Source: Parcubacteria group bacterium
GTDB lineage: Bacteria > Patescibacteriota > Patescibacteriia > UBA2169
Assembly (NCBI GenBank): GCA_016181765.1
Contig: JACOYR010000004.1
Span: forward strand, 201,853-265,852
Direction of reading: 5' to 3'
Length of the DNA stretch: 64,000 nucleotides
Shown: piece after piece, positions 2,921 to 28,731 of the stretch
Position numbering within the stretch: the first letter of the stretch is position 1
Layout of the letters: each line of letters begins with the position of its first letter
Translations under genes and position numbers: made by a program
Notes under the pieces: model-generated
The model's database searches: none
What the model was told of the DNA's origin: nothing
What the model saw: only the letters and a program-made list of their open reading frames with translations

Positions 2921-3106
2921 CCCACATCCTCCTGGTTGCGTGGTGAGGGAAAACTACCGATGAACGCCACGATTGTGGCGCCGAAAGAACTGCACAAACT
3001 ATAGTAGCAATACTAACCAAACTACCAGACAACGGGCGCGCTGTCAATATGCGGCCGCGCCGCGCGAGCGCTTGTATTGCGCGCGAACAGCTCACTGTGC
3101 TACGAT

Positions 3107-4357
3107 ATGCGTATCATTCCTATGGCACACGGCGCGCCGCACGCACAATCCAATCAGGAGGAACAGGGCCGCGACCACAAGTCCTTGGGCACGCAGCTTG
3201 ATTTGTTCGTGTTCAATGATCTGGTGGGGCCCGGGCTGCCGCTATGGACGCCCAAGGGAACCATCCTGCGCGAGGAGCTGGATAATTTCGTGTGGAGCCT
3301 GCGCAAGAAGCACGGGTACCAGAAGGTGGAAATTCCGCACCTGGCCAAAAAAGATTTGTACGAAACCAGCGGGCACTGGGCAAAGTTCAAGGATGATTTG
3401 TTCCGCGTCAAAACGCGCGAGGGCCACGAGTTCGCCATCAAGCCCATGAACTGCCCGCACCACACGCAGATCTACAGCCGCCATCCCCAGAGCTACCGCA
3501 ACCTGCCGGTGCGCTACTGCAACACCACCATGTGCTACCGCGACGAGCAGACCGGCGAGCTCAACGGGCTCGCGCGCTTGCGCGCGTTCACGCAGGATGA
3601 TTCGCACGTGTTCTGCCGCACTAGCCAGGTGGAAGAAGAATTTTTGAAAATCTGGGACATTGTTGATGAGTTCTATTCCGCGTTCGGGTTTAAGCTCTCA
3701 CCCACGCTCTCGTTGTCCGACCCTAACAACATGGGCGCGTATCTGGGTGATGAAAAGCTTTGGAAGCAGGCAGAGGATGCATTGCGCAGCGTGGCAAAGA
3801 AGCGCAACGTGCAAGCTCCGGAAGTCCTCGGCGAGGCCGCGTTCTACGGACCGAAGATTGATTTTGCGGCAAAGGATTCGCTGGGCCGGGACTGGCAGGT
3901 GGCAACCATCCAGCTGGATATGAACATGCCCGAGCGCTTTAACTTGGCGTGCGTGAATGAGAAAGGCGAACCAGAGCGCATTGTGATGATCCACTACGCG
4001 GTGATGGGCGCCATTGAGCGGTTCCTCGCCATTTTACTGGAACACACGGCTGGCGTGTTCCCGGCGTGGCTCGCGCCCATCCAAATTAGCGTTGCCACGG
4101 TTTCCAACGAAAAGCACCTGGTGTACGCGCAAAAGCTTGCGAATGAACTTTCGGCCGCCGGAGCGCGCGTTTGGGTTGATGATTCAGATGAGTCAGTCGG
4201 CAAAAAGGTGCGAGCGAGCGAGCAGCAGAAAATCCCCTACACGCTCGTGATCGGGGACAAGGAAATGGCTGGCAAAAAACTCGCGGTCCGCGCTCACGGC
4301 GAACGAGACACGGTTGAAATGACGCCGGACGAGTTGGTTGCAAAACTCAAGCGATAA
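3107..4357 (+). CDS. thrS: threonyl-tRNA synthetase, catalytic core plus anticodon-binding domain only (no N-terminal TGS or editing domains)
   Basis: The motifs LDLF…KPMNCPHHTQIY…FTQDDSHVFC and a class II core followed by an anticodon-binding domain are present. The ORF opens at 3077, but the first Met at 3107 or 3122 is the more likely start. The protein is only about 415 aa. Confidence 0.9.
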   Translation: MRIIPMAHGAPHAQSNQEEQGRDHKSLGTQLDLFVFNDLVGPGLPLWTPKGTILREELDNFVWSLRKKHGYQKVEIPHLAKKDLYETSGHWAKFKDDLFRVKTREGHEFAIKPMNCPHHTQIYSRHPQSYRNLPVRYCNTTMCYRDEQTGELNGLARLRAFTQDDSHVFCRTSQVEEEFLKIWDIVDEFYSAFGFKLSPTLSLSDPNNMGAYLGDEKLWKQAEDALRSVAKKRNVQAPEVLGEAAFYGPKIDFAAKDSLGRDWQVATIQLDMNMPERFNLACVNEKGEPERIVMIHYAVMGAIERFLAILLEHTAGVFPAWLAPIQISVATVSNEKHLVYAQKLANELSAAGARVWVDDSDESVGKKVRASEQQKIPYTLVIGDKEMAGKKLAVRAHGERDTVEMTPDELVAKLKR

Positions 4358-4388
4358 TAGTTTTTTGTTATTTTTTTAACAAAAGAAA

Positions 4389-4420
4389 GAGGCCCGCGGA
4401 GCTTGCGCTCGTTGGGCCTC
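4389..4420 (-). terminator. GC hairpin (gaggcccgcggag…ttgggcctc) between convergent thrS and the 104-aa gene; the T-run lies on the minus-strand side
   Basis: The 7-bp stem is perfect. On the minus strand it is followed by tttcttttgtt. Confidence 0.5.
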
Positions 4421-4441
4421 GGTGAACGTGTCTGACGCTAT

Positions 4442-4756
4442 CTACAGCGTCGGGAGCACGGTGCGGACGAAGTGCCCGCCGTCGTTGCTGTGCGGCACGT
4501 ACGCACCATGCTGGACGTTGAACGTATAGTTCAGTGTCCAGAGAGCTCTGCGGACCTCGTCGGTGACGTCCCTCACCGACTTGATCCACGGCCGCCCCTC
4601 TTCATCGTAGATCACCACAACCCCATTGTTGCAGTCAAAGGTGTTTGGTGTTCCGTGTTTGACGTGCTGTTCCTCCTCGGAGTGTCCCGGGTGCTCGGAT
4701 GTGCCGAGCGCACAGAAGAGCCCGAGGTCCAACAGCCTGTGAGAGAGCTTACCCAT
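4442..4756 (-). CDS. small His-rich hypothetical protein (104 aa), probably highly expressed
   Basis: The ORF has an AAAGGAGG Shine-Dalgarno 8 nt upstream and a perfect consensus promoter (TTGACA-17-TATAAT with TGc extended -10). No recognisable domain. Confidence 0.6.
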   Translation of the reverse strand: MGKLSHRLLDLGLFCALGTSEHPGHSEEEQHVKHGTPNTFDCNNGVVVIYDEEGRPWIKSVRDVTDEVRRALWTLNYTFNVQHGAYVPHSNDGGHFVRTVLPTL

Positions 4757-4823
4757 CGCGCGCCTCCTTTGAAGGCATCATGCGGGTTTTTTACGCTAGG
4801 CACGCTTTGTACCTAACAATATA

Positions 4824-4852
4824 ATTATAGCATACTTCCTATTTCTTGTCAA
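4824..4852 (-). promoter_or_regulatory. consensus sigma70-type promoter: -35 TTGACA (4847-4852 rc), 17-bp spacer, extended -10 TGcTATAAT (4824-4829 rc)
   Basis: The minus strand reads agatatagTTGACAagaaataggaagtatgcTATAATtat. Confidence 0.7.
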
Positions 4853-4932
4853 CTATATCTAACATTAGCCAAAAAAGTGAAATGATTAAAAGTGCCGAAT
4901 TGACGTTTTGACTAGCGTAAATTCCCAATGAT

Positions 4933-5295
4933 ATGTATATCCAAGACCTGCAAAAATGCGACGAAATTATCGCGGGTGACGATTCCGTCCTCCGCGAACT
5001 TTTGCACCCAAACAAAGCGGACGTAGCATTCCGGTATAGTTTGGCGCACGCGATGGTTAAGAACGGCCTGTCATCTAAATCGCACAAACTAAAAACATCA
5101 GAGGTGTACTACATTCTGGAAGGCGAAGGCACCATGCATGTCAATGGCGAGGCTGCAAACGTTCGCGCGGGCCACGTTGTGTACATTCCCCCGAACGCAA
5201 CGCAATACATTGAAAACACCGGCAATGCGGATTTGAAATTTTTGTGCATTGTTGACCCGGCCTGGCGGCCAGAAGACGAAGCCGAAACGGAATAG
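4933..5295 (+). CDS. cupin-domain protein
   Basis: The 120-aa product carries a cupin 2 barrel motif (EVYYILEGEGTMHVNGE…GHVVYIPPNATQYIEN). Confidence 0.75.
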   Translation: MYIQDLQKCDEIIAGDDSVLRELLHPNKADVAFRYSLAHAMVKNGLSSKSHKLKTSEVYYILEGEGTMHVNGEAANVRAGHVVYIPPNATQYIENTGNADLKFLCIVDPAWRPEDEAETE

Positions 5296-5343
5296 GCAAA
5301 ACCAGCGGCTAGAGCCTGCCCCATACGTAATACGAGGGGCCGA

Positions 5344-6132
5344 TCACAGCGGGCTCTGAATCGCGGCCAGAGCAGATCGCGCCACCTTGGTGTACACCTG
5401 CGTGGTGGTAAGCCGCGCGTGGCCCAAGAGCTCCTGGATGTACCGAATGTCGGTGCCGTTCTCCAGCAAGTGCGTGGCAAACGAATGGCGCAAGCTGTGG
5501 CAGCTTGCCTGTTTTTTGATGCCCGAATCTTTGAGCGCGTGGGCAAATATCTTTTGAGCCGACCGTTCAGTCAGCTTCCCGCCGCGGCTGCTTTCAAACA
5601 CAAAATCGCGTGCGTCTTTTTTTGCAACATACCGCGCAAGCGGCGCGCTGACTTTTTCAGAAAACAAGGTAACCCGGTCTTTCCCTCCTTTGCCGCCGCG
5701 AACCATCACGGCTTGGTTATCAAAATCCAAATCCCCCACCTTGAGATTCACGGCTTCGGAAACCCGCAACCCGGCCGAGTACATCATCCCGAGCAGGAGC
5801 TTGTGCTTGGCGCTTTTGATGGTTCCGAGCAATAACCGCACTTCTTGTTTGGAGAGCACCACCGGAAGTTTTTTTGATGATTTGGCGCGCGGAATGGAAA
5901 CAAAAAATCTCCGCTTGAGCACGGAGCCAAAGTAAAACTTAAGGGCGCTGTACACGGTATTGAGTGTTGACGCGGACTTTCCCGCGTCCGCGAGCGCTTC
6001 CAGATACTTTCGGACATCAGCCGTAGTGGTTGCCCGGGGGCCTTTGCCCGCCGAGCGCAAAAAGCCTTTGACGTTCGTTATATACGAACTTTGGGTCATT
6101 GGGCTAAACCCCCGCAGTTTCATCTCCTGCAC
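5344..6132 (-). CDS. tyrosine site-specific recombinase (XerC/XerD/IntI branch)
   Basis: The C-terminal catalytic motifs HSLRHSFATHLLENGTDIRYIQELLGH…TTQVYTKV are present. The segment KKLPVVLSKQEV…GLRVSEAVNLKVGDLDFDNQAVMVRGGKGGKDR resembles XerD and IntI. At 262 aa it lacks the IntI-specific insertion. It is divergent from the adjacent AT-rich island. Confidence 0.9.
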   Translation of the reverse strand: MQEMKLRGFSPMTQSSYITNVKGFLRSAGKGPRATTTADVRKYLEALADAGKSASTLNTVYSALKFYFGSVLKRRFFVSIPRAKSSKKLPVVLSKQEVRLLLGTIKSAKHKLLLGMMYSAGLRVSEAVNLKVGDLDFDNQAVMVRGGKGGKDRVTLFSEKVSAPLARYVAKKDARDFVFESSRGGKLTERSAQKIFAHALKDSGIKKQASCHSLRHSFATHLLENGTDIRYIQELLGHARLTTTQVYTKVARSALAAIQSPL

Positions 6133-6179
6133 GAATTTCTCAAAGCCTTCCGTAAAAACAACCAGTTCGTATATAACTA

Positions 6180-6207
6180 GTTATAAGAAATTTAATTTGA
6201 AAGCCCT
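6180..6207. repeat. left copy of a 28-bp imperfect inverted repeat (gttataagaaatttaatttgaaagccct) flanking the deoxyribosyltransferase-like gene
   Basis: Its reverse complement pairs with 6633-6660 at 25 of 28 positions. Confidence 0.7.
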
Positions 6208-6237
6208 AAGAGGAATTAACAAGTAAATGCATGAAAT

Positions 6238-6630
6238 ATGAAAATAGTCATCTGCGGTTCTAGACGTTTCTTTGACGACATTCGCGACTTGGAACGCAAG
6301 TTGCGCGAGAACGGTCATATTGTCTTGGGACCCATACTCAACAGAAATAAATCTATCAGCGACCTGCCGAGTGATCTTAAAACATACGCTTTTTTAGGAT
6401 TGACGCTTCACCATTTTGAATTTATCCGCAAAGCCGACATCTGCTTCATGTACAACAAAGATGGTTATCTTGGCAACAGTGGTACTTTGGAGCTTGGTTT
6501 TGTGGTCGCCTGCGGTATTCCAATATACGCTCTGAATGAAGATAAAGACGAGGTTTGCAGGAATGTACTCTTTGACTTCGTGGTTAATGACATTGATGAA
6601 TTCGTTAAAATTGTTAATTCCAATAAATGA
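6238..6630 (+). CDS. nucleoside 2-deoxyribosyltransferase-like / SLOG-fold protein
   Basis: The 130-aa product starts MKIVICGS…, and the segment GYLGNSGTLELGFVVACGIPIYAL matches the catalytic-Glu region G.G.ELG(F/Y)A of the Nuc_deoxyrib_tr family. The gene is AT-rich (about 33% GC) and is bounded by inverted repeats. Confidence 0.65.
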   Translation: MKIVICGSRRFFDDIRDLERKLRENGHIVLGPILNRNKSISDLPSDLKTYAFLGLTLHHFEFIRKADICFMYNKDGYLGNSGTLELGFVVACGIPIYALNEDKDEVCRNVLFDFVVNDIDEFVKIVNSNK

Positions 6631-6632
6631 CA

Positions 6633-6660
6633 AGGGCTTTCAAATTAAACATCTTATAAC
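6633..6660. repeat. right copy of the 28-bp inverted repeat; it overlaps the start of palindromic element A copy 1
   Basis: The sequence agggctttcaaattaaacatcttataac is the reverse complement of the left copy at 6180-6207. Confidence 0.7.
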
Positions 6661-6839
6661 ACTGAATATGCGGTTCAAAAACATTGCCCATTAGATACGA
6701 TTGGTCGCAATGTTTTTTCACCCAAATGGCGCTTCTGATATCCGCGATTGATGTTGTCTATACTGTGCATCTGATGACCACACTCCTACTGATTAAGACG
6801 GCGCCACTTCGCATATTCAGGAACGTTGCGACGAAATAA
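6656..6839 (+). repeat. palindromic element A, copy 1 (about 184 bp): outer IR cactgaatatgcgg/cgcatattcag, inner perfect 11-bp hairpin aaaaacattgc/gcaatgttttt, 3' tail gaacgttgcgacgaaataa
   Basis: It is 5'-identical over about 68 bp to copy 2 at 11488, and it shares its architecture and 3' tail with copy 3 at 12786. Confidence 0.7.
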
Positions 6840-6980
6840 TTTTTTTTATAAGTTTTTCTCAATCGGCTTTTTAAGAAAAGGAATAAAATAAGTTTTTTAA
6901 GAATTAGGATTTTAGGAGGGGTAAAGCCAAGGTGGTTTTCTCCGCTTCGCTCCGAAAACGATTCATTAATTAATTTATGT

Positions 6981-7439
6981 ATGTCAAAAATTAATGTAGT
7001 TTATACGCCCAAAATTGATGAAGAAGAAAAAAGAATATTTGAAGAAGTATTCGGAAAAAATAAAGTAGTATTTGGGGAATATAAAATTAAAGGAATAACA
7101 TGGGGCGCATTTGACATTCAAATAATAATAGACGCCTTGAATGACCCCACCATAACAGCCTTACTACACGGCACAGAATTTGCGCGTTTAATTGCCGTAT
7201 TGGTTAAAAAATTATTTAGCAGAAATACTAAAAAAATAATGGATAATAAATCAAGACCCAGATACACGACTTTGGTTATAAGAAAAGAAACTAGTTCTGT
7301 CGTAGTATCAAATGTTAATCCCGGCAACAAAATTCTTATTTCTAAAATCACGGCTAATTTCGAGGAAATTAAAAAACAGTTTGAGAGCGGTGATGATAAA
7401 TATACAGATGAAAAACTTAATAACTACTTGGATAATTAA
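6981..7439 (+). CDS. hypothetical protein (152 aa)
   Basis: It is an AT-rich ORF in an operon-like arrangement with the next two ORFs, which are spaced 5 and 4 bp apart. Confidence 0.5.
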   Translation: MSKINVVYTPKIDEEEKRIFEEVFGKNKVVFGEYKIKGITWGAFDIQIIIDALNDPTITALLHGTEFARLIAVLVKKLFSRNTKKIMDNKSRPRYTTLVIRKETSSVVVSNVNPGNKILISKITANFEEIKKQFESGDDKYTDEKLNNYLDN

Positions 7440-7444
7440 AATTT

Positions 7445-7651
7445 ATGAAGTCAAAAATAATTAAAAGCAAACGACTAAAGGATCGCATAGTGGAGATAAT
7501 TGAGTATAAAGATGATTTTGGGAAAATTGTAAATTATTCTGTTATTAACGTAAACCATGGCGAAGGGGTCATTGCGGGTGCCGGTAAATTAGAAGAAAAT
7601 AATTTTTCTAATGAAGAGGAAGCAATGATATTTTTTAATAATCAAAATTAA
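7445..7651 (+). CDS. hypothetical small protein (68 aa)
   Basis: Its spacing to the neighbouring genes suggests translational coupling. Confidence 0.4.
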   Translation: MKSKIIKSKRLKDRIVEIIEYKDDFGKIVNYSVINVNHGEGVIAGAGKLEENNFSNEEEAMIFFNNQN

Positions 7652-7655
7652 ATCT

Positions 7656-10136
7656 ATGCAAAAACAGTTCACAATCTATTTTATTCTTATTTTTATTCTA
7701 GGATTAACTTCGCTTAATTTTATTCAAAAAGTAAAAGCGTCAGATATTCCTGTGCCTATTGCCTACTGGAACCTTAACGACCAGGATGCTATAAATGCTG
7801 GCTTAGCATCCGATCAAATGGGTAACTATAATATGCAAATAGTTGACGGTACTTGGGATAGTAATGCATATGATGGCGGTTCTGTTGTTTTTAGTTGCAT
7901 GAAAACTGATTATAATGCTTGCGGGGCAAAAATCAGTAACGCCCTGCCAGAATTGAGCAAGTTTACTATATTATACAGAGTAAAATTAAAAGGTCCTATT
8001 AACAATACTCTTCGCCGCATCGTTGATTCAACGGGAGGATTTCATACATATTTTGACGGAAACTCAATCATGATTTCAGGAAACGGCATGAAAAATAGTA
8101 TTGATGAACCAATCAGTGTCAGCGAAAATTGGTATCATTTCGCAGTTGTTTACGACAATGCCGATGGTTATTATTTTTATAAAAATGGAAATTTAGCTGA
8201 ATACTCTACGACATCAGGCAATAAGATAAGCAGTGGGATCTGGTCCTTTGGGTATGGTGGTGGTGTCCAGGGCGATGCGAGTGCAAATATTATCCAACTT
8301 GATGAAATAAAAATATATGACACAGCACTTACCTCAGATCAAATTTTAGAAGAAAATAATTACAACGAAATAAGGTGTAAAGCAGATATTTACCAATATG
8401 GTGAGTGGGGCTCATGTCAGCCTGACGGCACAAAAACCAGAACTGCGACCAAAACGTTTAACTGTCCTTATACAAATAATGAACCAGAAAATGCAACAAC
8501 AAGTTGTAGCTATATTCCGCCTACTTGTACTTCTTGGCAATACTCAAACTGGTCGCAGTGTTCGAATAGTGGCCAACAAATAAGAACTATTATTTCATCT
8601 TCGCCAAGTGGCTGTGTTGATGGAAAGCCAATTTTAAATCAAAGTTGTAATTATACTCCTGTTTGTACAGTCAATAATTGGTCGTGTGATAATTGGTCGG
8701 GTTGTTCTTCTGGTGGAACTCAAACCAGATCCTGTAATAAAATTTCAAATTGCGAGGGTGGAATTTCCGCCCCGACCACCTCTCAATCCTGTACCTACAC
8801 TCCGACTTGTTCGGCAGACACTTGGCAGTGTGAAAATTGGGGGTCTTGCTCGCCACAAGGAATACAGGCAAGAAGCTGTACCAGAACCTATGACTGCCCG
8901 TCCGCTGAAACAGCGGCCCCGGCGACATCGCAATATTGCGTAGCCCCAAACCAGCCCAAACAACAATCACCGACCGAGGATTTGGGCATAGTAAACCAAA
9001 GCACAATTATAAAATCCACAGTTAAGCTTGTTTGTCCCGTAAATAGCACCACCGCAAGCCAAGGTTCGGGCACAGTTATCAATTCAACCGGCTTAATTTT
9101 GACCAATAAACACGTCATTGACGATACAGCCGGATGTCTAGTCGGGTTTATTGATGATTATGGCGATGAACCGTATTTTGGCGACAGGCAGATCGCTGAT
9201 ATTTACAAAATATCCAGCGATGCTGATGTTGCTGTTTTGAAATTGAGAAATCCAAGCAACAAGCCGCTAACCTCGATCAGTATTTCTCAAAGCAACAGCA
9301 ACAACATCAAATTGGGAGAAATACTTACTACCTACGGCTATCCGGCAAAATTCGGCACAAAAATAACCTACACCAGCGGCGATTTTAGCGGCGTGGACGG
9401 CAATTATCTGAAAACAACCGCTATTATTGAGCACGGCAATTCCGGCGGAGGCGCGTATTTAAAAAATGGCGCGTTTATCGGCATTCCAACCGCCGTAGTA
9501 AAAGGCAGTTTAAACTCCTTGGGCTATTTACTGTCAATCAATAAAGTAAACAGCTGGCTTAATAATTCTATAGCATATAACTACAATAATAATGACAATA
9601 ATTATTCGCGGGTTTCGGCTTTGTTAGAAGATATAAATTTGAACACTCTTGATTCTTTGGGCCTGTTCTTGCCTGGAGATGAGAAAAATCTTAAAACCCA
9701 AACAGAAAGCCAAAGCGTAATAGCCGAAGAAAAATTGTTGACCACCAAAATTGACAGCAGTTTATCAAGAAGAGTGAGTGGAAATATTCTGTTGCAGGTG
9801 GAAAAGAAAGGCGAAGGGTGGTATGTATATCCGGATAATAAAAAGAAGTATTATTTAGGCCGTCCGGCAGACGCTTTTAGCATTATGCGGAATTTGGGAT
9901 TGGGAATCAAACACAGCGAACTTAGCATTTATCTCAATTCAAAATTTCCCAGCAGATTATCCGGGAAAATATTATTGGATGTTGAGCAAAAAGGCGAAGC
10001 GTATTATATCAATCCAAACGACTTAAAGGGCTACTACCTTAGCAAGCCAGCAGACGCATTCAGAATTATGCGAGAACTCGGGCTGGGAATCACTAATGAT
10101 GACATAAGGAAAATTGACGTTGGTGAGACAGAATAA
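7656..10136 (+). CDS. secreted multidomain protein with a signal peptide, a LamG/ConA-like lectin domain, three thrombospondin-type-1-like Cys repeats, a trypsin-like serine protease domain and two C-terminal repeats of about 60 aa
   Basis: The N-terminus has the hydrophobic segment MQKQFTIYFILIFILGLTSLNF. The LamG-like region reads NWYHFAVVYD…LDEIKIYDTAL. The WxxWxxCSxxGxQxR repeats are CTSWQYSNWSQCSNSGQQIR, WSCDNWSGCSSGGTQTR and WQCENWGSCSPQGIQAR. The TNKHVI segment (His) and the GNSGGGAY segment (Ser) indicate a trypsin-like protease. Tandem repeats at the C-terminus read GKILLDVEQKGEAYYINP… and SGNILLQVEKKGEGWYVYP…. Confidence 0.8.
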   Translation: MQKQFTIYFILIFILGLTSLNFIQKVKASDIPVPIAYWNLNDQDAINAGLASDQMGNYNMQIVDGTWDSNAYDGGSVVFSCMKTDYNACGAKISNALPELSKFTILYRVKLKGPINNTLRRIVDSTGGFHTYFDGNSIMISGNGMKNSIDEPISVSENWYHFAVVYDNADGYYFYKNGNLAEYSTTSGNKISSGIWSFGYGGGVQGDASANIIQLDEIKIYDTALTSDQILEENNYNEIRCKADIYQYGEWGSCQPDGTKTRTATKTFNCPYTNNEPENATTSCSYIPPTCTSWQYSNWSQCSNSGQQIRTIISSSPSGCVDGKPILNQSCNYTPVCTVNNWSCDNWSGCSSGGTQTRSCNKISNCEGGISAPTTSQSCTYTPTCSADTWQCENWGSCSPQGIQARSCTRTYDCPSAETAAPATSQYCVAPNQPKQQSPTEDLGIVNQSTIIKSTVKLVCPVNSTTASQGSGTVINSTGLILTNKHVIDDTAGCLVGFIDDYGDEPYFGDRQIADIYKISSDADVAVLKLRNPSNKPLTSISISQSNSNNIKLGEILTTYGYPAKFGTKITYTSGDFSGVDGNYLKTTAIIEHGNSGGGAYLKNGAFIGIPTAVVKGSLNSLGYLLSINKVNSWLNNSIAYNYNNNDNNYSRVSALLEDINLNTLDSLGLFLPGDEKNLKTQTESQSVIAEEKLLTTKIDSSLSRRVSGNILLQVEKKGEGWYVYPDNKKKYYLGRPADAFSIMRNLGLGIKHSELSIYLNSKFPSRLSGKILLDVEQKGEAYYINPNDLKGYYLSKPADAFRIMRELGLGITNDDIRKIDVGETE

Positions 10137-10259
10137 AAATATCCAATTATTTGTAGACATCTTTCTTGTCTTATTCTAATATATATGCTATTATTAGAAT
10201 AAGCTAATTCTTTATTATAACCGTTAGAATAACGAAACTCCTTATTCTAACCGCAAAAT

Positions 10260-11360
10260 ATGGCTAACCAACCCTTTAATCCGCCCGCCTTACCGCCAAA
10301 AATCAACTATGAGCCACTGATTGACCATATTATCAGGGCCCACCGCGCCCTGGCCGGGCTTGATTCCCTGCTTGGCGCTTTACCCAACCCGAACCTATTG
10401 GGCCGAACCATGCAAACCAAAGAAGCGGTGGAAAGTTCAAAAATAGAGGGTACCCAAGCCACGATCAACGAAGTCTTGGCGTATGAAGCGGAACCGGGGA
10501 AAAAGGAAGATGCCAAGAAAAAACAAGACATAAACGAGATTATAAATTACCGCCAGGCTTTGGACTTGGGAGTAAAAAGTTTAACCACACTGCCGTTGTC
10601 CGAAAACTTGATTAAAAAACTGCATGCCACCCTGCTTAAATCCGGCCGGGGCGCCAATAAAGCGCCGGGTGAATTTAGAAAAATACAGGTGTACATCGGC
10701 AAGCCCGGAGCCACTATTTCCGAAGCGTCATATATTCCCCCGGCTGCTAACGGCATAATCTCCTTATTCAGCAATTTGGAAAAATACCTTAATAGCGGCG
10801 ATGAAAAAGACAAATTAGTGCAAATCGCGGTGGCCCATTATCAATTTGAAGCTATCCACCCTTTTTTGGACGGCAACGGCCGGGTCGGCCGGCTGATTAT
10901 CTCTCTGTTTTTGTACGAGAAAAAATTATTATCGCACCCGTTTCTGTATTTGAGCGAATTTTTTGAGGAGCACCGCCGGGATTATTACGAATTATTGAGC
11001 AATGTGAGCGCCAAGCAGGATTGGGAAAGCTGGATAAAATTTTTCTTGAACGCCCTGGCCACCCAAGCCCAAAAAGCCGAAGCCATTGGCAAGGAAATTC
11101 TGAAACTCCACAGCGGCTATAAAGAAAAAATTATAGCCATCAACTCCATGTATGCCAATAACTTATTGGACGCGATTTTTATTCGGCCGATTTTTACCAC
11201 TGCCAGCCTGCGGCCGCACGTTAAAATGAAAAATACCCAGACATTTTTCAGCTTAGTGGCAAAATTCGCCGCCGCCGGAATTTTAGAAGAAGCCAACCCC
11301 AAAAAAAGACGCAATAAAGTTTATGTCTTCACGGAATTAATGAAGCTTTTGAATAAATAA
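10260..11360 (+). CDS. fic: Fic family AMPylase (Fido) with an N-terminal inhibitory motif
   Basis: The canonical HPFLDGNGRVGR motif is present. The upstream SSKIEG matches the (S/T)xxxE(G/N) auto-inhibition motif of class II Fic proteins. Confidence 0.9.
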   Translation: MANQPFNPPALPPKINYEPLIDHIIRAHRALAGLDSLLGALPNPNLLGRTMQTKEAVESSKIEGTQATINEVLAYEAEPGKKEDAKKKQDINEIINYRQALDLGVKSLTTLPLSENLIKKLHATLLKSGRGANKAPGEFRKIQVYIGKPGATISEASYIPPAANGIISLFSNLEKYLNSGDEKDKLVQIAVAHYQFEAIHPFLDGNGRVGRLIISLFLYEKKLLSHPFLYLSEFFEEHRRDYYELLSNVSAKQDWESWIKFFLNALATQAQKAEAIGKEILKLHSGYKEKIIAINSMYANNLLDAIFIRPIFTTASLRPHVKMKNTQTFFSLVAKFAAAGILEEANPKKRRNKVYVFTELMKLLNK

Positions 11361-11447
11361 AGAGTTTTGGGCAAAGGGCATTCACCCCTAACCCCTCTGC
11401 CCCTTGCCCAAAACAAAAAATAAATTTAAGATTTAAGAAAAAAAAGC
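11361..11447 (+). repeat. repeat B, copy 1: terminator-like hairpin ttttgggcaaagggca…tgccccttgcccaaaa plus an AT-rich tail, directly after fic
   Basis: It is about 90% identical over its first 53 bp to 12658-12745. Confidence 0.7.
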
Positions 11448-11487
11448 CTACCAAAAGACATCAAAAAAAATATTTTTAGAACAGCGT

Positions 11488-11605
11488 ATAACACTGAATA
11501 TGCGGTTCAAAAACATTGCCCCTTAGATATGATCGGTCGCAATGTTTTTTCACCCATATTTGCCTCCGCTACGCTTTGGCAAACATCGCATATTCAGGAA
11601 CGTTG
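11488..11605 (+). repeat. palindromic element A, copy 2
   Basis: The 5' 68 bp are near-identical to copy 1, and it ends with tcgcatattcaggaacgttg. Confidence 0.7.
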
Positions 11606-11943
11606 TAACCGCTCAACAAGACCGTAGAGACCAAAACGATTATTTCCATCAGCAAATAAACATATTCGTAAAAAATTTGAGTGACGGCAATGAGGTGCAA
11701 ATCCTGTCCACCCAAGGAGATGTAAGAGAAACGGGATGGGTTAGTGCAAGCTTTAGTCCTGACAGCAAATACGGCGTATACAATCTAAACAAGCAGCTCT
11801 GGATTCTTGACGCTGAAACTGGAGAAAAAACACAGCTTACAACCGAGTTGAGAGAGTACCGCGAACCTCGTTGGTCTACGGACGGAAATAAAATTATCTA
11901 TACTACGGGTGAAGAAGTAAGATTAATTAAACTGACATTTTGA
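11542..11943 (+). pseudogene. fragment of a TolB-like PD40 beta-propeller protein (probable gene remnant)
   Basis: The translation …SDGNEVQILSTQGDVRE…FSPDSKYGVYN…REPRWSTDGNKIIYTT contains PD40-type repeats. There are only about 100 aa of the domain, and the ORF's 5' end runs into repeat element A, so no credible start exists. Confidence 0.35.
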
Positions 11944-12032
11944 TTCTATCAAATACATATATTTCCCTTGAACCTGCCCATGAGGCGGGCAGACACCCCA
12001 TTAGTTCCCCTCCGCCCTTTACCTATCAATTC

Positions 12033-12563
12033 ATGAAACCAACACCAAACAACTTCGCCTACATTGACGCCGCCAACTTGCACCGGGGCGTTATTCAGCT
12101 TGGCTGGCAATTGGATTACAAGAAATTCCGGATCTGGCTGAAAGAGAAATACGGCGTTAGCCAGGCCTATCTTTTCATCGGTCTGGTGCCCAAGCACAAA
12201 GATTTATACACCAGCTTGCAGGAAGCCGGCTTTACCCTTGTCTATAAAGAAATAACCTATGACGGCGAGGGCAAGGTCAAAGGAAATTGCGACGCTGATT
12301 TGGTGCTTAAAACCACCCGCGACGCTTACGAAAACTCGTTTGCGCAAGCGATTTTGGTTTCCAGCGACGGCGATTACGCCGGCTTGGTTAAATTTTTGCT
12401 GGAAAGAAACAAGTTCATGGGCATTATTTCCCCGTCAGTTTCGGCCAAATGTTCGGTGCTATTGAAACGGACCGGCGCGCGCATAGCGTACATCAATGAC
12501 CAGAGGTCCATATTGGAAATTACAAAAGGCGGCCAAAAAGAAAAAGCCCCCGGCCGGGACTAA
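12033..12563 (+). CDS. NYN-domain (LabA-like) putative ribonuclease
   Basis: Conserved acidic residues of the NYN fold are seen in FAYIDAANL…GNCDADLV…VSSDGDYAGLV. The ORF opens at 11940, but the Met at 12033 is the likely start. Confidence 0.8.
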   Translation: MKPTPNNFAYIDAANLHRGVIQLGWQLDYKKFRIWLKEKYGVSQAYLFIGLVPKHKDLYTSLQEAGFTLVYKEITYDGEGKVKGNCDADLVLKTTRDAYENSFAQAILVSSDGDYAGLVKFLLERNKFMGIISPSVSAKCSVLLKRTGARIAYINDQRSILEITKGGQKEKAPGRD

Positions 12564-12657
12564 CCCCGGCAAGGGTCTTTTTCGTAGTGATAAATACAGT
12601 ATAGCAGTTTGAGGCAAAAAGTCAATATAACTTATAAACAGCCCAAAAACAGACAAA

Positions 12658-12745
12658 GAGTTTTGGGCAAAGGGCATTCACCCCTAACCCCTCTGCCCTT
12701 TGCCTAAAACGGAAAAAACTTATTTTAAAATTTAAGAAAAAGCCG
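12658..12745 (+). repeat. repeat B, copy 2 (after the NYN gene)
   Basis: It carries the same hairpin as copy 1 with one compensating mismatch, and the same aaatttaagaaaaagcc tail. Confidence 0.7.
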
Positions 12746-12785
12746 ATTGAAGAAAAATTCAAAGAAAAAAAATTACATCGCGCAA

Positions 12786-12910
12786 CAGCGCATATGAGGT
12801 TCGGGAAAAAGCGATAATTTGATATAATCAAGGTGTCGCCTTTCCCCTCTCCCAAACCCGCCAAGGAGGCGGGCTTCTCATATGCGCGAACGTTCTGCGA
12901 AATAAAATAA
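12786..12910 (+). repeat. palindromic element A, copy 3 (diverged): outer IR gcgcatatgag/ctcatatgcgc, 3' tail gaacgttctgcgaaataaaataa
   Basis: Its architecture and conserved 3' tail match copies 1 and 2. Confidence 0.55.
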
Positions 12911-12926
12911 TTTTATTCAATTTTTT

Positions 12927-13183
12927 ATGAGTATAGAAAGACCTGAAAACATACAAGAACAGCTTCGGGAAATTTTTTTAAAGGAAGAATATACCTGTCG
13001 CCGGAACAATTAAAAATCATTGATTTCTTGGACCAGATGGGGCGCATTGTCGTTAAAGACGCGGAAGAGATATTGTCCTGCCCGCGGCGCACGGCGCAAT
13101 TGCACTTGCAAAAATTAAAAAAGATTAAAATGATTAAAGCCACCGGCAAAGGCAAATCCACCGCCTATATCGCCAATAAATAA
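12927..13183 (+). pseudogene. winged-HTH regulator (…LSPEQLKIIDFLDQMGRIVVKDAEEILSCPRRTAQLHLQKLKKIKMIKATGKGKSTAYIANK) split by a frameshift in a T7 tract
   Basis: The ATG at 12927 gives MSIERPENIQEQLREIFLKEEYT and then a stop. Frame +2 (read relative to that ATG) continues from 12947 as an HTH with the typical GKG(K/R)ST.Y ending. The two frames join at aatttttttaaagg. Confidence 0.4.
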
Positions 13184-13213
13184 TAAGGGTGTTTAAGGCG
13201 CGCGGTATGTATG

Positions 13214-13813
13214 CTACGCCATAAGCACGTTCGCGCGCTGCGGCTTCCAGAGCACGGTGATGGCGCTCGCGAACGCGAGGCCGGACATCAACACAAACAG
13301 CGCGTCAAAGCCATACTTTGACGCAATCACGGCGCCGGCCACGGACCCGACTGCAGTGGTGTAGTAGGTCATGGCCTCCCACACGCCCCACTGGCGCGCC
13401 GGATGCCGGAAATCCAGGTGCTGGGAATACAACGCGGAAAACGGGGGCGCGTACACTGCCTGCCCGGCTCCGATCACCGCCTCAACGATAAGCAGGGTTG
13501 CGAACGAATCAACCAACGTGTACAAAGCAAACCCAAGTCCGATGATCGCGTACCCGATGCCCACGAACACCCTGCGCGAACCAGACCAGTCGCTCGCCTT
13601 CCCCACAACCAAGGTAAGGGTGCCCGCGACCACGGCGAACACCCCTCCGGCAATGCCCGCATTCAAAATAGAGCCGCCCACATCAGCGATAAACAGCGCG
13701 TAAATGGGCCCAAGCATTGCTTCGGCAAGGAAAATCAGCCCATTGGTGATGAGCAAAAACTGGCGGATTTTGTTGTGCTTCTTTGGTGCCATATCACGAT
13801 ACAAAAAACCCAC
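13214..13813 (-). CDS. MFS transporter, N-terminal six-TM half only (truncated?)
   Basis: Six hydrophobic helices and MFS motif A (GKASDWSGSRRV) are present. The protein is 199 aa, whereas a 12-TM MFS is about 400 aa. The stop lies about 15 bp from the AT-rich island boundary. Confidence 0.7.
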   Translation of the reverse strand: MGFLYRDMAPKKHNKIRQFLLITNGLIFLAEAMLGPIYALFIADVGGSILNAGIAGGVFAVVAGTLTLVVGKASDWSGSRRVFVGIGYAIIGLGFALYTLVDSFATLLIVEAVIGAGQAVYAPPFSALYSQHLDFRHPARQWGVWEAMTYYTTAVGSVAGAVIASKYGFDALFVLMSGLAFASAITVLWKPQRANVLMA

Positions 13814-13982
13814 ACGCTGACTAGCGCGAGCTTGATAATAATGAGGCCCCGGAAAGGTAGAAAATGATGTTTTGTCGGGGCATATATACTATACCACAGC
13901 TAATAAAAAAATACAAGCTTGTGCTCTTTCCGAAAAAATGTGATATAATAACACCGCATTTTTCATCACTTAAAAAACAGAT

Positions 13983-16712
13983 ATGCAACACAAACCATAC
14001 CTGGGCTTGATCATGGCGCTCGCGCTCGCGCTCGCATCCCCTGCCCTCGCGCAGGATGAAGCCACAACCGAGGAGGCTGCGGTGGACGCGGCCGTGCAGG
14101 AAGCAGCTGCTGAAGAAGCCGTGGACGCGGTCATTGAGGAAGTCGGGCTCTCTCCGGAAGCGCTGGAAGACGAAGTCGTCACCGAACAGGATCTGGAAGC
14201 CGAGACCCCGGGCAGGTTCCATTTCCTGACGAAAATCAAGCGCACGGTCCAGCGCACCATCACGCGCGATCCCATCAAAAAAGCCGAGTACCGCATTGAG
14301 GAGGCGCACGAGGAACTGTTGCGCGCCAAAAAGCTCGTGGAAGAGAACCCGGATGACGAGGGAGCGCAGGAGCGCGCCCAGGAAGCGCTCGGTGATTTTG
14401 AGCGCAATATAGAAAAGGTAAAAGACCAGGCAGCGGACATCAAAGAGAAAAAGGCGGACCAGGCCGGCGCGTTCTTGGAAAAAATAGCGGACTTCCAGAT
14501 CAAGCAGCAAAAAATGCTTGATAATTTGGAGGAGAAGCTTCCGGAGCAGGCCTTTGCAAAAGTGCAGGAAGCGCGCCAGCGGTCCATAGCGAACCAGTCC
14601 CAGGTCATGGCCCAGGTGGCCGAAAACCAACAGCAGATCGCAGAACGCTTCAGCGCGGCGTTTGAGAAGCAGCGCGGCAGTGAATTCCGGGACTTCAAAA
14701 ACATTGAAATGATGGAACAGATGTCCGAGTTCATTCCGGACGAAATGAAAACCGCCATTGAGCAGGCAAAAACAGAGGCCCGCGCCCGGTTTGAAACGCA
14801 GATCCAGTCCCTTTCTGGAGATGCGCGCAACCAGGGGTTCAAGCGGTACGTGGAAAACATTAGTGGAGATCCGGTCAGCCAGATGCGCGCCCTGGACAAC
14901 ATAAAATCCCAAGCCGACCTTCCGGACGAATTTTTCGCAAGCATGGAGGCCGCAAAGGAAAAAACCATCAATAAGTTTGAAGAGCGCTTCCGGAGGTTTG
15001 CGGATCCCGCAAACCGCGAAGCGTTCCTGAACGAGTTCTCAAACGGCAGCCCGGAAAATTTGCGCGCCATGCAGCAAATCCAGGAAAACGTGCCCCCGGA
15101 AATCAAGCAGGAAATAGAGCGCAAAGAAACCCAATCAATCCAGCGGTTCAAGGAGCGGTTTGTGGATGATCCGGATGCGCAGTCCCGCGCCGGCAAGTTC
15201 CAGGAGCTCGCCAAAAAAATGCGCGAAAACCCGGACCCCGCAACTTTCGCCGCCATCCAGCAGATTGAGCAGAACCTGCCCCCGGAACAGCGCGCGTTCG
15301 TAGAAGGCCTCAAGCAGGAAGCCCAGGCCGGGTTCCAAGAACAGTTCCGGCAAGACCAGGGCACGTTCCTCAAGCGCATCCAGAGCTTTGACCCGAACGC
15401 CATCCAGCAACTGCAACAGTTTGGCGGAGACGCTCCGGCAGAGTTCCAGGGGATCATCAGCCAGGCTGTAAACGGGCAAATTGATTTTACGCGCCAGCGG
15501 CTCCAGCAGTTTGACGATCCTGCAAGGTTTGAGCGGTTCAAACAGCAGATTGACCAGAACGCGGGCATCCGTCAGCAGATTGAGGCGCGGTACGCTGATT
15601 TCGGGAGCCAATTGCAGAACAAGGGCCAGGAAATAGAGGGCATCAAGCAGCAGATTGAACAGGGCTTCAGCCAGCGGATTGAACAGGAACGCCAGATGAG
15701 AACCGAGCAGGGCTTGCCTGACTTTTCGCAAGAGGAGCTTACAAACATCAAAGAGCGCTTCTTCCTGCGGCCCCAGCTCGGCATTGAACAGGGCGTGGCC
15801 GACCAGTTCCGCCAAGTGCAGGAACAACAGGTCCAGAGGGAGTTCCAAAACCAATTCCGCGAGCAAGCGGTACAGCAGGGCTTGCAGGGAGACCAGCTGA
15901 ATAATTTCCTGAAACAGCAGGGCATCAGCGAAGACGAACAGCGCTCGTTTGAGCAGGGCCCCCCGCAGGGCGGCCAGCAGTTCCGCGAGTTTCAGAATGT
16001 GCCGAGCGACATCCAGCAAAAGCTCCAGGAGCAGTTCCAGAACCGCGAGCAGGACCTCAAACAGCAGATCCAGCGCCAGGGCGCGGTTCCCCAGGAAATT
16101 CTGCAGAGGGTCCAGCAACAGCAGCAATTCCAGCAGTTCCGAGAGCAGAACCAAGGACAAAACAACCGAGAGCAAGGCGGCCAGCCTAATGAGGCCAGGA
16201 CCGAAAACAGCGGCCGCGCCATAGAAAACCAGCGCCAAGAGTCCGGGCGCTCCCTGGAGCAGCTGCGGGAAGACCTCAAGCAGAACAGCCCTTCCGGAAC
16301 CAAGATTAACGAGCAGCCGTTTGAGGATGCCAAACGCGCGGTGGAGCGCCAGGCCGAATTCCTAAAACAGCAGCAGGAAAACCAACGCGAAAGCCAGAAG
16401 CAGGAACAGCAATTCCAGCCGCCTTCTCAAAATTCTTTCCAGCCGCCCCGAACAGAGCAGCAACAACAGCCCCAGAGCTTCACCCAGCCGCAAGAGTTCA
16501 AACAGCCGGAGAACAGCGGACCATCATTCAATAGCGGCCCCTCATCTGGAGGTTCCGGGAGCTTTTCTCCCCCTCCGTCCGGCGGCAACTTCTCTTCGGG
16601 CGGCGGTGGCGGCAACACGCCGCCTCCTCCCCCGCCTTCCGGCGGCGGATCCTCAAGCGGGCCCGGCCCCTCGTCCGGCGGCGGCACTCCGCCTCCTCCC
16701 CCGCCGCAGTAA
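13983..16712 (+). CDS. secreted Gln/Glu-rich repeat protein (909 aa) with a signal peptide and a Gly/Ser/Pro-rich C-terminal tail
   Basis: The signal peptide is MALALALASPALAQD. There are about 50-aa internal repeats of the form (…DP…F…NxPPE…RF.E.F), and the protein ends …GGGGNTPPPPPPSGGGSSSGPGPSSGGGTPPPPPPQ. The antisense ORFs 13821-14912 and 13970-15568 are composition artefacts. Confidence 0.8.
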   Translation: MQHKPYLGLIMALALALASPALAQDEATTEEAAVDAAVQEAAAEEAVDAVIEEVGLSPEALEDEVVTEQDLEAETPGRFHFLTKIKRTVQRTITRDPIKKAEYRIEEAHEELLRAKKLVEENPDDEGAQERAQEALGDFERNIEKVKDQAADIKEKKADQAGAFLEKIADFQIKQQKMLDNLEEKLPEQAFAKVQEARQRSIANQSQVMAQVAENQQQIAERFSAAFEKQRGSEFRDFKNIEMMEQMSEFIPDEMKTAIEQAKTEARARFETQIQSLSGDARNQGFKRYVENISGDPVSQMRALDNIKSQADLPDEFFASMEAAKEKTINKFEERFRRFADPANREAFLNEFSNGSPENLRAMQQIQENVPPEIKQEIERKETQSIQRFKERFVDDPDAQSRAGKFQELAKKMRENPDPATFAAIQQIEQNLPPEQRAFVEGLKQEAQAGFQEQFRQDQGTFLKRIQSFDPNAIQQLQQFGGDAPAEFQGIISQAVNGQIDFTRQRLQQFDDPARFERFKQQIDQNAGIRQQIEARYADFGSQLQNKGQEIEGIKQQIEQGFSQRIEQERQMRTEQGLPDFSQEELTNIKERFFLRPQLGIEQGVADQFRQVQEQQVQREFQNQFREQAVQQGLQGDQLNNFLKQQGISEDEQRSFEQGPPQGGQQFREFQNVPSDIQQKLQEQFQNREQDLKQQIQRQGAVPQEILQRVQQQQQFQQFREQNQGQNNREQGGQPNEARTENSGRAIENQRQESGRSLEQLREDLKQNSPSGTKINEQPFEDAKRAVERQAEFLKQQQENQRESQKQEQQFQPPSQNSFQPPRTEQQQQPQSFTQPQEFKQPENSGPSFNSGPSSGGSGSFSPPPSGGNFSSGGGGGNTPPPPPPSGGGSSSGPGPSSGGGTPPPPPPQ

Positions 16713-17595: not shown

Positions 17596-17601
17596 AAAAA
17601 G

Positions 17602-17630
17602 AGGCCTGACTCGGAACATTGAGTCAGGCC
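17602..17630 (-). terminator. perfect 10-bp hairpin (aggcctgactc…gagtcaggcc) with a T7 run on the minus-strand side
   Basis: It is directly after the miaA stop. The A-run at 17590-17601 reads as a U-run for a minus-strand transcript. Confidence 0.45.
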
Positions 17631-17651
17631 GCGCCGCGAAACCAGGCGCGC

Positions 17652-18035: not shown

Positions 18036-18061
18036 AAAACGGCTTCCCGTCAGGGAAGCCG
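18034..18061 (-). terminator. rho-independent terminator of gatB (cggcttccctgacgggaagccg followed by T6 on the minus strand)
   Basis: The perfect 9-bp stem and the U-run were read directly. Confidence 0.7.
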
Positions 18062-18230
18062 ATGTTCGTGAAATAATGAAATGCCGGTGTTGCCGGAGCA
18101 GAAACCCGGCTTGTTCGTCTTATGCTTTGTCTTGTTGTTCCGGGGCATTTCTACCAGTATACTCCCTGCCCCACTGCCGCGCAAATCCCGCTTGTGGACA
18201 ACTTTGACGCGGAGCATCTTCGCGATCCCG

Positions 18231-28536: not shown

Positions 28537-28663
28537 GTTTGGATGATGATGTCAGTATAACAGATATTTTTGATGAAATAAAGGGTTGATGATGCAGTTT
28601 TTGCGCTAATGTTGGGGAAAAATAAATGATGAAATATGGCTAATTTTAGCCTATCTTGTGCTA

Positions 28664-28692: not shown

Positions 28693-28731
28693 AGATACAT
28701 AATCAAAAGCCAAAAAAACCGTTCTTTGATA

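Follow-up and report, generated by a model that had tools for sequence, protein, structure and literature searches.

Integron integrases are thought to be derived from Xer recombinases, with one gained helix allowing the use of folded single-stranded sites (PMC4792948, PMC7790495). An exchange of a single strand which is resolved by replication has been described for integron attC × attI recombination and for CTXphi at dif (PMC3442271, PMC4792948, PMC5357621). Single recombinases with a site linked to their gene are known from XerS/difSL and some archaeal xerA/dif systems (PMC5357621), and in the case of Legionella XerL/dif the mobile element LME-1 carries a dif mimic (PMC9765430). In this study, we analysed a 64-kb window (the whole stretch of DNA under consideration, positions 201,853 to 265,852 of contig JACOYR010000004.1) of a Parcubacteria-group bacterium (Patescibacteria/Candidate Phyla Radiation, CPR), the nearest proteins of which bear the same name. 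It contains an island of low guanine-plus-cytosine content (GC) with three copies of a structured element, termed A, beside the gene of an XerA-type tyrosine recombinase (xer). We read the island as a small array of mobile gene cassettes accumulated at a site directly upstream of this conserved recombinase, with a probability of about 0.7. Contigs and loci used for comparison are given by L numbers.

The recombinase gene (5344-6132, - strand; Pfam Phage_integrase and Phage_int_SAM_4) lies to the left of the island on the opposite strand, where an earlier note on this DNA had seen a tyrosine recombinase. At a conserved position upstream of xer, a double-stranded dif-like/attI-like site plus cassette start extends over 6159-6191 (no strand assigned). 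It consists of CAACCAGTT (6159-6167), CGTATAT (6168-6174), AACTAGTT (6175-6182), the crossover (marked by a slash in the following), and ATAA-GAAAT (6183-6191), and can alternatively be parsed as TTCGTATAT-AACTAGTT-ATAAGAAAT. Two inverted arms enclose a central region, as in Xer/dif core sites. More distant loci support a reading in which the arms TTCGYATAW and N4-GAAAT enclose 8 central nucleotides with AGTT at their end; with this reading, the observed junction after GTT would be the position of bottom-strand cleavage. A parsing as two AACYRGTT arms around CGTATAT was rejected because it misplaces the crossover relative to these loci.

The same or a similar site was found at the same position in L003, L004-L006, L010, L013, L094, and L095, and the exact sequence occurs in one copy each in the two species-representative genomes holding it. 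What follows AGTT/ differs by genome, being ATAAGAAAT in the window, ATGTGAAAT in L003, and GCGACGAAAT in L004. In L003, with a recombinase 94% identical, a different gene starts directly after AACTAGTT/. In L004-L006 (CG10_46_32) the site is directly followed by about 135 nt that are about 95% identical to window positions 6828-6960, while in the window the junction to this sequence comes after the first A element (...GGAACGTT/GCGACGAAAT). Therefore, 6183-6827, comprising a small gene and this A element, is an insertion. The comparison of syntenic loci suggested in the earlier note for finding an empty site thereby provided both relatives without the 645 nt and the exact junction.

This insertion, cassette 1 (6183-6827, 645 nt, + strand), carries a gene for a 130-aa nucleoside-deoxyribosyltransferase-like protein (6238-6630) and the element A1, and shows a clean signature: a 28-nt inverted repeat (6180-6207/6633-6660, 93% complementary) connects its start to the 5′ flank of A1, the first four nucleotides (N4) ATAA pairing with TTAT. 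A start that pairs with the 5′ flank of the cassette's own A element is as expected if the cassette had been a circle containing one recombination site.

The three palindromic repeats reported earlier are real and were recovered as covariance-model hits at 6646-6839, 11478-11616, and 12772-12906, all on the + strand and the only copies in the 64 kb. A1 (6649-6827; 82.9 bits, E 1e-16) is composed of an ACATC-TTAT flank, AAC (6658-6660), an 11-bp stem, two internal hairpins, a GAAC bulge, and GTT (6825-6827), as seen from the hit and the fold. In A2, AAC is located at 11490-11492 and GTT at 11602-11604, and in A3 at 12784-12786 and 12892-12894, respectively (+ strand, both by covariance model). 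A1 and A2 share 93% identity over 80 nt; A3 is diverged with a compensated outer stem, CTGAATATGCG/CGCATATTCAG being replaced by GCGCATATGAG/CTCATATGCGC. Each element folds into an 11-bp outer stem around two hairpins (z-scores -2.6 to -5.7). Both arms resemble the xer-proximal site: the 5′ arm CTTATAAC-ACTGA-ATATGCG-GTTC is similar to the - strand of the site, CTTATAAC-TAGTT-ATATACG-AACTGG, and the 3′ arm TTCGCATAT-TCAG-GAAC-GTT to TTCGTATAT-AACTA-GTT, also given as TTCGTATAT-AACTAGTT. The likeness of the A2 5′ flank to L010 runs a further 25 nt.

To search public data, a strict pattern was derived from the three window copies, fixing AACA, ATATR, GGTTC, YATAT, and GAACGTT. It matched 74 metagenome contigs from many habitats, and a scan of viral contigs with the A pattern gave 0 hits. 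A covariance model (R1) was run on 543 kb of fetched loci and detected 202 elements, about 200 of them spread over 66 independent public contigs. The best 150, from 65 sources (64 public contigs and the window), were used for the following array statistics. None of the 65 sources showed mixed element orientation, the median spacing was 961 nt, and up to 10 elements were present per contig (L057), with seven to nine each in L037, L081, L058, and L078. Elements are 77-204 nt long (median 109 nt), with AAC in 149/150 and GTT in 144/150 and a flank consensus of RYMY-AAC/GTT-RKRY; the full IUPAC integron cores RYYYAAC and GTTRRRY match 25% and 22% of the elements. The family consensus reads ACATC-N4-AACA-N4-ATATG-N-GGTTC-(hairpin)-CACCCAWATTT-(hairpin)-AAACWTCGCATAT-N4-GAAC-GTT/N4-GAAAT.

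The fold is conserved throughout the family. Using RNAalifold and explicit pair counts, 94.3% of the cells were paired, compared to 69.5% after shuffling and 34-55% with a slid partner, and 699 cells were changed on both sides compared to 212 in shuffles. Open reading frames (ORFs) of at least 60 aa within the units were co-oriented with the element in 131 cases and opposite in 15. A total of 119 Pfam families were matched in 123 cassette proteins, led by NUDIX, SAM (S-adenosylmethionine) and DNA methyltransferases, GNAT, Fic, NYN, and metallo-beta-lactamase fold proteins; no replication or morphogenesis domains were among the 25 most-matched families of these 123 proteins. Many cassettes share conserved starts of about 135 nt and conserved ends of about 250 nt.

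The unit boundary became evident from the sequences flanking the elements. In 56.5% of 85 consecutive pairs, the N4 before AAC was perfectly complementary to the N4 after the previous GTT, while complementarity was found for the element's own downstream flank in 7.2% and for random pairs in 6.4%; the trend was also seen over 7 and 12 nt. Therefore, the boundary of a unit lies at or within GTT, and each unit once had its ends joined. Also, identity between contigs ends exactly there: 1269 nt (L014/L038), 576 nt (L020/L072), and 306 nt (L021/L037) are identical and followed by unrelated sequence right after GTT. A2-type ends were seen to share one 5′ flank while being continued downstream by five different sequences.

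Such strong covariation, together with the conserved single-stranded motifs GGTTC and CACCCAWATTT, is as in many RNAs, and the elements are always located downstream of genes on the coding strand. This would be accounted for if A were a structured non-coding RNA, a 3′-untranslated region or terminator, or a repeat of the REP (repetitive extragenic palindromic) or MITE (miniature inverted-repeat transposable element) type, and the island ordinary horizontally acquired DNA. None of this predicts that N4 pairs with the flank of the previous element, that identity between contigs ends exactly at GTT, or that both arms copy the xer-proximal site and arrays start there, and an Rfam search of 4000-15000 gave nothing at E <= 1. 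We consider this explanation very improbable, while an RNA role of the A elements alongside a role as DNA is possible.

The recombinase itself was assigned by profiles and structural alignment. It passes the NCBI XerA-type model NF040815 (229.8, cut-off 220) and stays below the cut-offs of the IntI hidden Markov models (HMMs) TIGR02249 (211.6, cut-off 265, match in two stretches) and NF011946 (158, cut-off 435). Its alignment to Pyrococcus XerA (4a8e) is a single stretch (E 2.6e-44) in which the motifs GLRVSE, GKGGKDR, HSLRHSFATH, LGH, and YT are kept. Compared to VchIntIA/IntI4 (2a3v), residues 4-169 align with chain residues 13-181 and residues 186-262 with 241-317, so that 60 chain residues (181-241) stand opposite 17 query residues (169-186). 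The alignment is thus split at the IntI-specific insertion (I2 helix, roughly 40 residues), which is therefore absent. The enzyme had been called XerC/XerD/IntI-like in the earlier note, of which IntI does not hold, and the segment KVGDLDFDNQAVMVRGGKGGKDR, said there to be close to the IntI/XerD patch, is an ordinary conserved beta-hairpin/lysine region that aligns equally to XerA and IntI. Likeness to IntI had been noticed previously, as seen from the label "tyrosine recombinase/integron integrase" of the Prokaryotic Genome Annotation Pipeline (PGAP).

Scores were obtained for over 7,900 homologues. Among the best 120, identities range from 59 to 100%, and many lineages of Patescibacteria are represented; across thousands of Patescibacteria the identity is about 60-65%. 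In relatives, the order recombinase, threonyl-tRNA synthetase (ThrRS), 390-aa protein, DnaE is kept, whereas the divergent side differs in every genome. Within the 64-kb window, the recombinase is the only one of its kind, and none is encoded inside the island itself.

A canonical integron, with the recombinase as IntI, A as attC, and the xer-proximal site as attI, would likewise place a divergent recombinase beside a co-oriented cassette array. The cores of A are near the integron cores, the lengths of the elements would suit attC sites, and the array recombinases score higher with IntI TIGR02249 (212-240 bits) than with the XerC/XerD HMMs (180-200 bits). However, the IntI cut-offs are not reached, the match is split at the IntI-specific insertion, the XerA-type model is passed, and the protein is conserved with a housekeeping neighbourhood across thousands of Patescibacteria. 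The A site also departs from the textbook attC layout by its 11-bp inner stem, the 1-versus-4-nt spacer, the three-way junction, and the single-stranded motifs. A canonical integron is therefore distinctly unlikely. From the integron or cassette-array reading of the earlier note, the geometry and the cassette logic remain, whereas an integrase of the integron family does not. Similarly, its palindromic boundary elements are indeed cassette-terminal, co-oriented AAC...GTT sites with the flank signature of a circle, but differ from attC in inner architecture. Because the recombinase fails the IntI tests, the locus is integron-like in its working and outside the integron family as defined.

The same arrangement is present in other lineages. 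In eight contigs obtained with the pattern, the recombinase is encoded on the strand opposite to the A elements, 0.5-3.5 kb upstream of the first one detected, which is also the layout of the window, and no contig with a recombinase (these eight, L010, and the window) shows any other arrangement. The recombinases of the eight pattern-derived contigs are 270-294 aa long and 39-46% identical to the window enzyme; those of L050, L068, L075, and L079 were profiled and are of the NF040815 type with an IntI match split likewise. The sites beside array recombinases follow the scheme TTCGCATAW, 8 nt ending in AGTT, crossover, N4, and GAAAT or GACAT. With only one cassette in between, the first 4-7 nt of this cassette are complementary to the A flank (gtcc/ggac in L079, gtac/gtac in L050, and atat/atat in L075). 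In L010 (Staskawiczbacteria, recombinase 82% identical), the site is followed by two genes, an A element, and then a methylase.

In addition, an unbiased set (L093-L096) was obtained by fetching Falkowbacteria- and Moranbacteria-type contigs via recombinase homologues only (P0039, P0020). These contigs contain four to five A elements, all of which lie on the side and strand predicted from the other arrays and are preceded by a small gene. The housekeeping side of the two lineages carries SmpB, IF3, L35, and L20 or a kinase-like gene and MurJ, respectively. In both lineages, pairing is perfect between the N4 that follows the xer-proximal GTT and the N4 before AAC of the first A (N4′), and 5/8 consecutive junctions of the two together are perfect.

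Chimeric joins introduced by metagenome assembly or binning could also have put low-GC foreign pieces beside the recombinase. Repeats of this type confuse assemblers: Logan contigs of the same population break inside A1, and L011 and L012 start inside the site. Independent assemblies nevertheless reproduce both junctions of the window exactly, L001/L002 covering xer, the site, and cassette 1, and L091/L092 covering 12669-15037 at 100% identity. With the same architecture in dozens of samples and assemblers, NCBI metagenome-assembled genomes included, an artefact is scarcely credible.

Downstream of cassette 1, the window is less regular. The second block (6828-11604, 4777 nt, + strand) starts with a conserved non-coding segment, "seg" (6828-6960, + strand), which is the sequence about 95% identical to the post-site sequence of CG10_46_32 (L004-L006). 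It is followed by ORFs for 152 aa (6981-7439) and 68 aa (7445-7651), the gene of a secreted 826-aa LamG/trypsin-like protein (7656-10136, by Pfam), a Fic gene (10260-11360, by Pfam), a B hairpin, and A2, all on the + strand. The N4′ of A2 (GTAT) does not match the start of block 2 (GCGA); therefore, block 2 is not a clean single cassette. The third block (11605-12894, 1290 nt, + strand) comprises a PD40 fragment, an NYN gene (11940-12563, + strand, by Pfam), a second B hairpin, an inverted copy of the start of "seg" (12713-12786, + strand), and A3. This inverted copy forms the 5′ flank of A3 and is complementary to 6825-6898 (78% over 77 nt, E 3e-7). Accordingly, 6828-12894 behaves as one composite unit, and it gives the impression of being composite or rearranged and of having trapped A2. 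The array tail (12895-13200, + strand) has a degenerate start CTGC-GAAAT and a frameshifted helix-turn-helix (HTH) gene (about 12928-13183); as no covariance-model hit was found from 12906 to the neighbouring major facilitator superfamily (MFS) transporter gene, it lacks a terminal A element.

This composite unit is also what brings a second type of mobile element into consideration, namely one or two tandem integrative mobile elements that exploit Xer (IMEXs), i.e. plasmid- or phage-like molecules that use Xer to enter dif. A single 6.1-kb unit (6828-12894) with an inverted repeat of about 75 nt joining its start to the A3 flank would suit such an element, as would the integration next to the site of an Xer-type enzyme and the uniformly low GC. 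Moreover, each A element is an inverted pair of site copies 75-135 nt apart; Val and colleagues (2005) reportedly described paired inverted site copies as the layout of the CTXphi attP region. On the other hand, the island proteins include no replication, capsid, or transfer genes by Pfam and thus no phage or plasmid functions, and cassette 1 measures just 645 nt. Elsewhere, the units delimited by these sites measure about 0.3-2 kb, carry one or two small genes unrelated to each other, and are stacked up to 10 deep, unlike known IMEXs. We therefore regard the IMEX explanation as unlikely and retain the cassette array.

For the function of the array we propose the following mechanism, with this recombinase as the presumed catalyst. 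A cassette would extend from one GTT to the next, with an N4-GAAAT start, one or few genes on the + strand, and an A site as its end, the latter consisting of ACATC-N4′-AAC, the 11-bp stem enclosing two hairpins, the 4-nt GAAC bulge, and GTT. When excised, the cassette would be circular with N4′ paired to N4; for cassette 1, the predicted circle junction is GGAACGTT/ATAAGAAATTTAATTTG (A1 joined to the cassette-1 start) and the predicted empty-site junction AACTAGTT/GCGACGAAATAAT. One strand of A would then fold, and its stem would imitate the xer-proximal site, with 8 central nucleotides between the arms TCGCATAT and N4-GAAAT. In this scheme, the site would be parsed as an arm TTCGYATAT, the 8-nt central region AACTAGTT, and an arm N4-GAAAT, while folded A would present an ATATGCG/CGCATAT stem, AAC-A-N4 opposite N4-GAAC-GTT with GAAC bulged, and an arm of N4/N4′ plus ACATC/GAAAT.

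The recombinase would subsequently swap one strand between folded A and the xer-proximal site, at or inside GTT. Since the central regions of A and the site differ, a second strand exchange would be blocked, and a single-strand exchange fits. The joint would be resolved by replication, and insertion would regenerate the site beside xer, so that new cassettes would stack next to xer. The substrate is probably single-stranded; as to which strand it would be, the bottom strand folds more stably in 137/148 elements, with a mean difference of 2.9 kcal/mol (p = 7e-24).

Several points weigh against the cassette-array reading. Only cassette 1 carries the clean signature, and the remaining 6.1 kb appears rearranged or composite. 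CG10_46_32 (L004) has 7.4 kb of variable genes beside the site, with no A element or inverted "seg" among them. The invariance at the positions of the seed pattern is partly given by construction, although the additional covariance-model hits and L093-L096 are not constrained in this way. Path-switching of assemblers in repeats could have made chimeras of some cases in which the same cassette has different neighbours; chimeras would weaken the N4 signature and could not produce it. Counts of G-T versus A-C do not confirm a preference for one folding strand, as they become symmetric after dropping one invariant pair. GC skew over the 64 kb shows no clear switch and is uninformative on the replication terminus and on the xer-proximal site as a dimer-resolution site, a function which it may additionally serve. 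Finally, the case is computational throughout, and the circular cassette form is deduced from sequence.

In the window, the recombinase gene may be impaired. Sibling contigs of the same population (L001/L002) as well as L003/L004 have 70 nt between site and xer which are missing in the window (6149/6150). In the sibling copy (L001:584-660), this sequence includes a TATAAT box, the ATG, and the first seven codons (MKQSKGG); the ends of the deletion share a CCTT microhomology. The window frame is open up to 6171, with the native start lost, and its ORF encodes 262 aa compared to 275 aa of the full-length protein. An exact-sequence look-up of the 262-aa ORF gave no match, because the true protein has 275 aa and the window copy is truncated. 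Low expression or inactivity of the window recombinase may be the consequence; alternatively, the deletion may be confined to a minority of the population or stem from assembly. With promoter and start codon lost, the array in the window may be frozen.

The composition of the island was overstated by the earlier note, which had given a GC drop to about 33%. The island is of low GC, but its mean is 0.404 (6187-12894) or 0.403 (6140-13200) compared to 0.555 in the remaining window, and the trough of 0.29-0.33 (minimum 0.29) is confined to about 6750-8000. All island genes are located on the + strand, and the gene labels assigned earlier agree with the Pfam matches, i.e. LamG plus trypsin-like (826 aa), Fic_N plus Fic, a PD40 fragment, NYN, and a small HTH fragment; the match to nucleoside deoxyribosyltransferase is weak and under the cut-off (E 7e-4), and the 152-aa and 68-aa proteins have no Pfam match. 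The gene blocks were said to be separated by the repeats, which is true for A1-A3, while no A element is present between the 826-aa gene and Fic. At this position (10194-10250), there is an imperfect inverted repeat with TATAAC-C-GTT-AGAA...GAAAC, which may be a collapsed cassette junction; homology to the Fic cassette of L050 starts at about 10172. The NYN cassette is 93-95% identical to array copies in L019 and L029 (90% in L080), ending in an A2-type site. A consensus scan found 21 promoter-like matches in the island compared to 17.6 +/- 4 by chance. A tRNA scan of the window found zero tRNAs, and therefore this is not a tRNA-targeted island.

Two conserved sequences accompany the elements. 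"Seg" (about 135 nt) ends in GGAGGGGTAAAGCCAAGGTGGTTTTCTCCGCTTCGCTCCGAAAACGATT, with copies in L004 (~7190-7324), L010 (~3390-3525), and L013 (~1425-1557); it follows the xer-proximal site in three relatives and A elements in L016, L019, L022, L045, and L055, and shows about 95% identity in genomes whose GC is as different as 46% and 56%. It could be a promoter or leader, an accessory sequence, or an RNA. The B hairpins (11364-11414 and 12660-12710, + strand) have a 17-bp stem and a conserved 17-nt loop TTCACCCCTAACCCCTC, which resembles the complement of the GGAGGGGT part of "seg". They lie about 70 nt upstream of A2 and A3, and the hairpin recurs before A elements in at least 10 other contigs.

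On the right, an intact half-size MFS gene (13214-13813, - strand) outside the array forms the chromosomal flank, as judged from homologue lengths and synteny. It had been described as a half-length gene, and half-size is correct, but it is not a broken half: all 31 of 31 homologues have 183-224 aa and represent a conserved half-size family of CPR. Disruption of the gene by the island was accordingly rejected, the homologues all having about 190 aa. The protein has six helices, belongs to a conserved family of about 190 aa in Parcubacteria and Roizmanbacteria, and may act as a dimer. In the relatives L088-L090, synteny covers the MFS gene and its right-hand neighbours, whereas the array side differs. 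In L089/L090, the same right flank carries A, NYN, a 115-aa gene, and MFS, and in L088 a glycosidase gene adjoins the MFS gene. As the array side differs while both flanks stay conserved, the array content turns over between relatives; their housekeeping flanks are only 73-86% identical.

Further to the right, 13983-16712 encodes a low-complexity protein of 909 aa which is rich in Q/E, starts with a signal-like N-terminus, and ends in a tail rich in G/P/S; its gene has 80-86% nucleotide identity in relatives, and long antisense ORFs over it are compositional artefacts. Long ORFs switch from the + to the - strand near 17.6-18.2 kb (~17600-18230), compatible with a nearby replication terminus. 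Low-GC patches (0.44-0.48) at 28000-29000, 32000-33000, and 44000-45000 contain no A elements. On the other side of the recombinase, xer and ThrRS are separated in the window and L001 by a cupin gene and a 104-aa gene (4442-5295, GC dip to 0.45), which are absent from L003 and L004, making this a second small variable spot. ThrRS of the window (3077-4357), L001, and L003 has 411-426 aa without the tRNA_SAD editing domain, and the orthologue in CG10_46_32 (L004:8266-10047) has 593 aa with a tRNA_SAD domain.

Beyond this locus, we see about even chances that CPR genomes commonly carry an undescribed gene-capture platform in which an insertion-less XerA-type recombinase and its site act as the integrase/attI pair, and circular cassettes would be taken up via a folded site of roughly 110 nt with a three-way junction mimicking the host site. 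If true, the integron principle would either have been invented a second time independently, or a relative of the transition from Xer to IntI would have survived here. This transition would become testable, and either the extra helix would be unneeded for cassette capture or a bridging step would be revealed. Such a dedicated gene-acquisition locus would also be possibly a main route of gene flux in the minimal genomes of CPR bacteria, whose tiny genomes and episymbiosis leave the sources of accessory genes in question; among the cargo of the cassettes are Fic, NYN, NUDIX, DNA methylases, and GNATs. The covariance model offers a way to mine thousands of CPR cassettes and to flag contig breaks beside the recombinase. 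Several independent assemblies break in or beside the site or the first A element (position 1 of L011/L012, L001/L002, and L003), and it appears that contigs repeatedly end at this locus when CPR metagenomes are assembled.

A literature search on Xer, dif, IMEX, integron, and attC in CPR, Patescibacteria, and Parcubacteria found no description, its incomplete coverage making this weak evidence of novelty; an integron-like or CTXphi-like cassette platform on an Xer-type recombinase is apparently undescribed. Compared to integrons, especially sedentary chromosomal ones, the locus shares the divergent tyrosine recombinase with an adjoining double-stranded site, co-oriented, small, mostly single-gene cassettes with the newest beside the recombinase, and a cassette end formed by an imperfect palindrome with 5′ AAC and 3′ GTT. 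Crossover at GTT, pairing of the first bases of the cassette with the far side of its own site, and a cargo of GNAT, NUDIX, methyltransferase, and toxin-like genes are further common features. In contrast to integrons, the recombinase lacks the I2 helix, fails the IntI cut-offs, and is the conserved XerA-type enzyme of the lineage. Its sites have an 11-bp inner stem, an invariant ATAT core, a 1-versus-4-nt spacer, a three-way junction, and loop motifs, many cassettes share starts of ~135 nt and ends of ~250 nt, and the hosts are Patescibacteria.

With CTXphi-type IMEXs at Vibrio dif (PMC5357621; PMC3442271), the array has in common an incoming element without integrase, an attachment region of two inverted host-site copies foldable into a forked hairpin, entry at an Xer site that regenerates a usable site and thereby leads to tandem stacking, and partners with different central regions, fitting single-strand exchange. 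It differs by one recombinase instead of XerC plus XerD and by units of 0.3-5 kb without phage or plasmid genes, many deep, at a site adjoining the recombinase gene. XerS/difSL, xerA/dif, and XerL/dif likewise combine one Xer-type recombinase with a gene-adjacent site at which a site-mimic element can integrate; hairpin-ended cassette arrays are not reported there, and the dimer-resolution role would here be a presumed one. The Acinetobacter pdif modules (PMC7399989, PMC5790767) are also small gene modules bounded by Xer-type sites and thought to be Xer-mobilised. Their sites are short, 28-bp, double-stranded, inverted, and located on plasmids, whereas the units described here each have one long structured site, all co-oriented, on the chromosome beside the recombinase gene.

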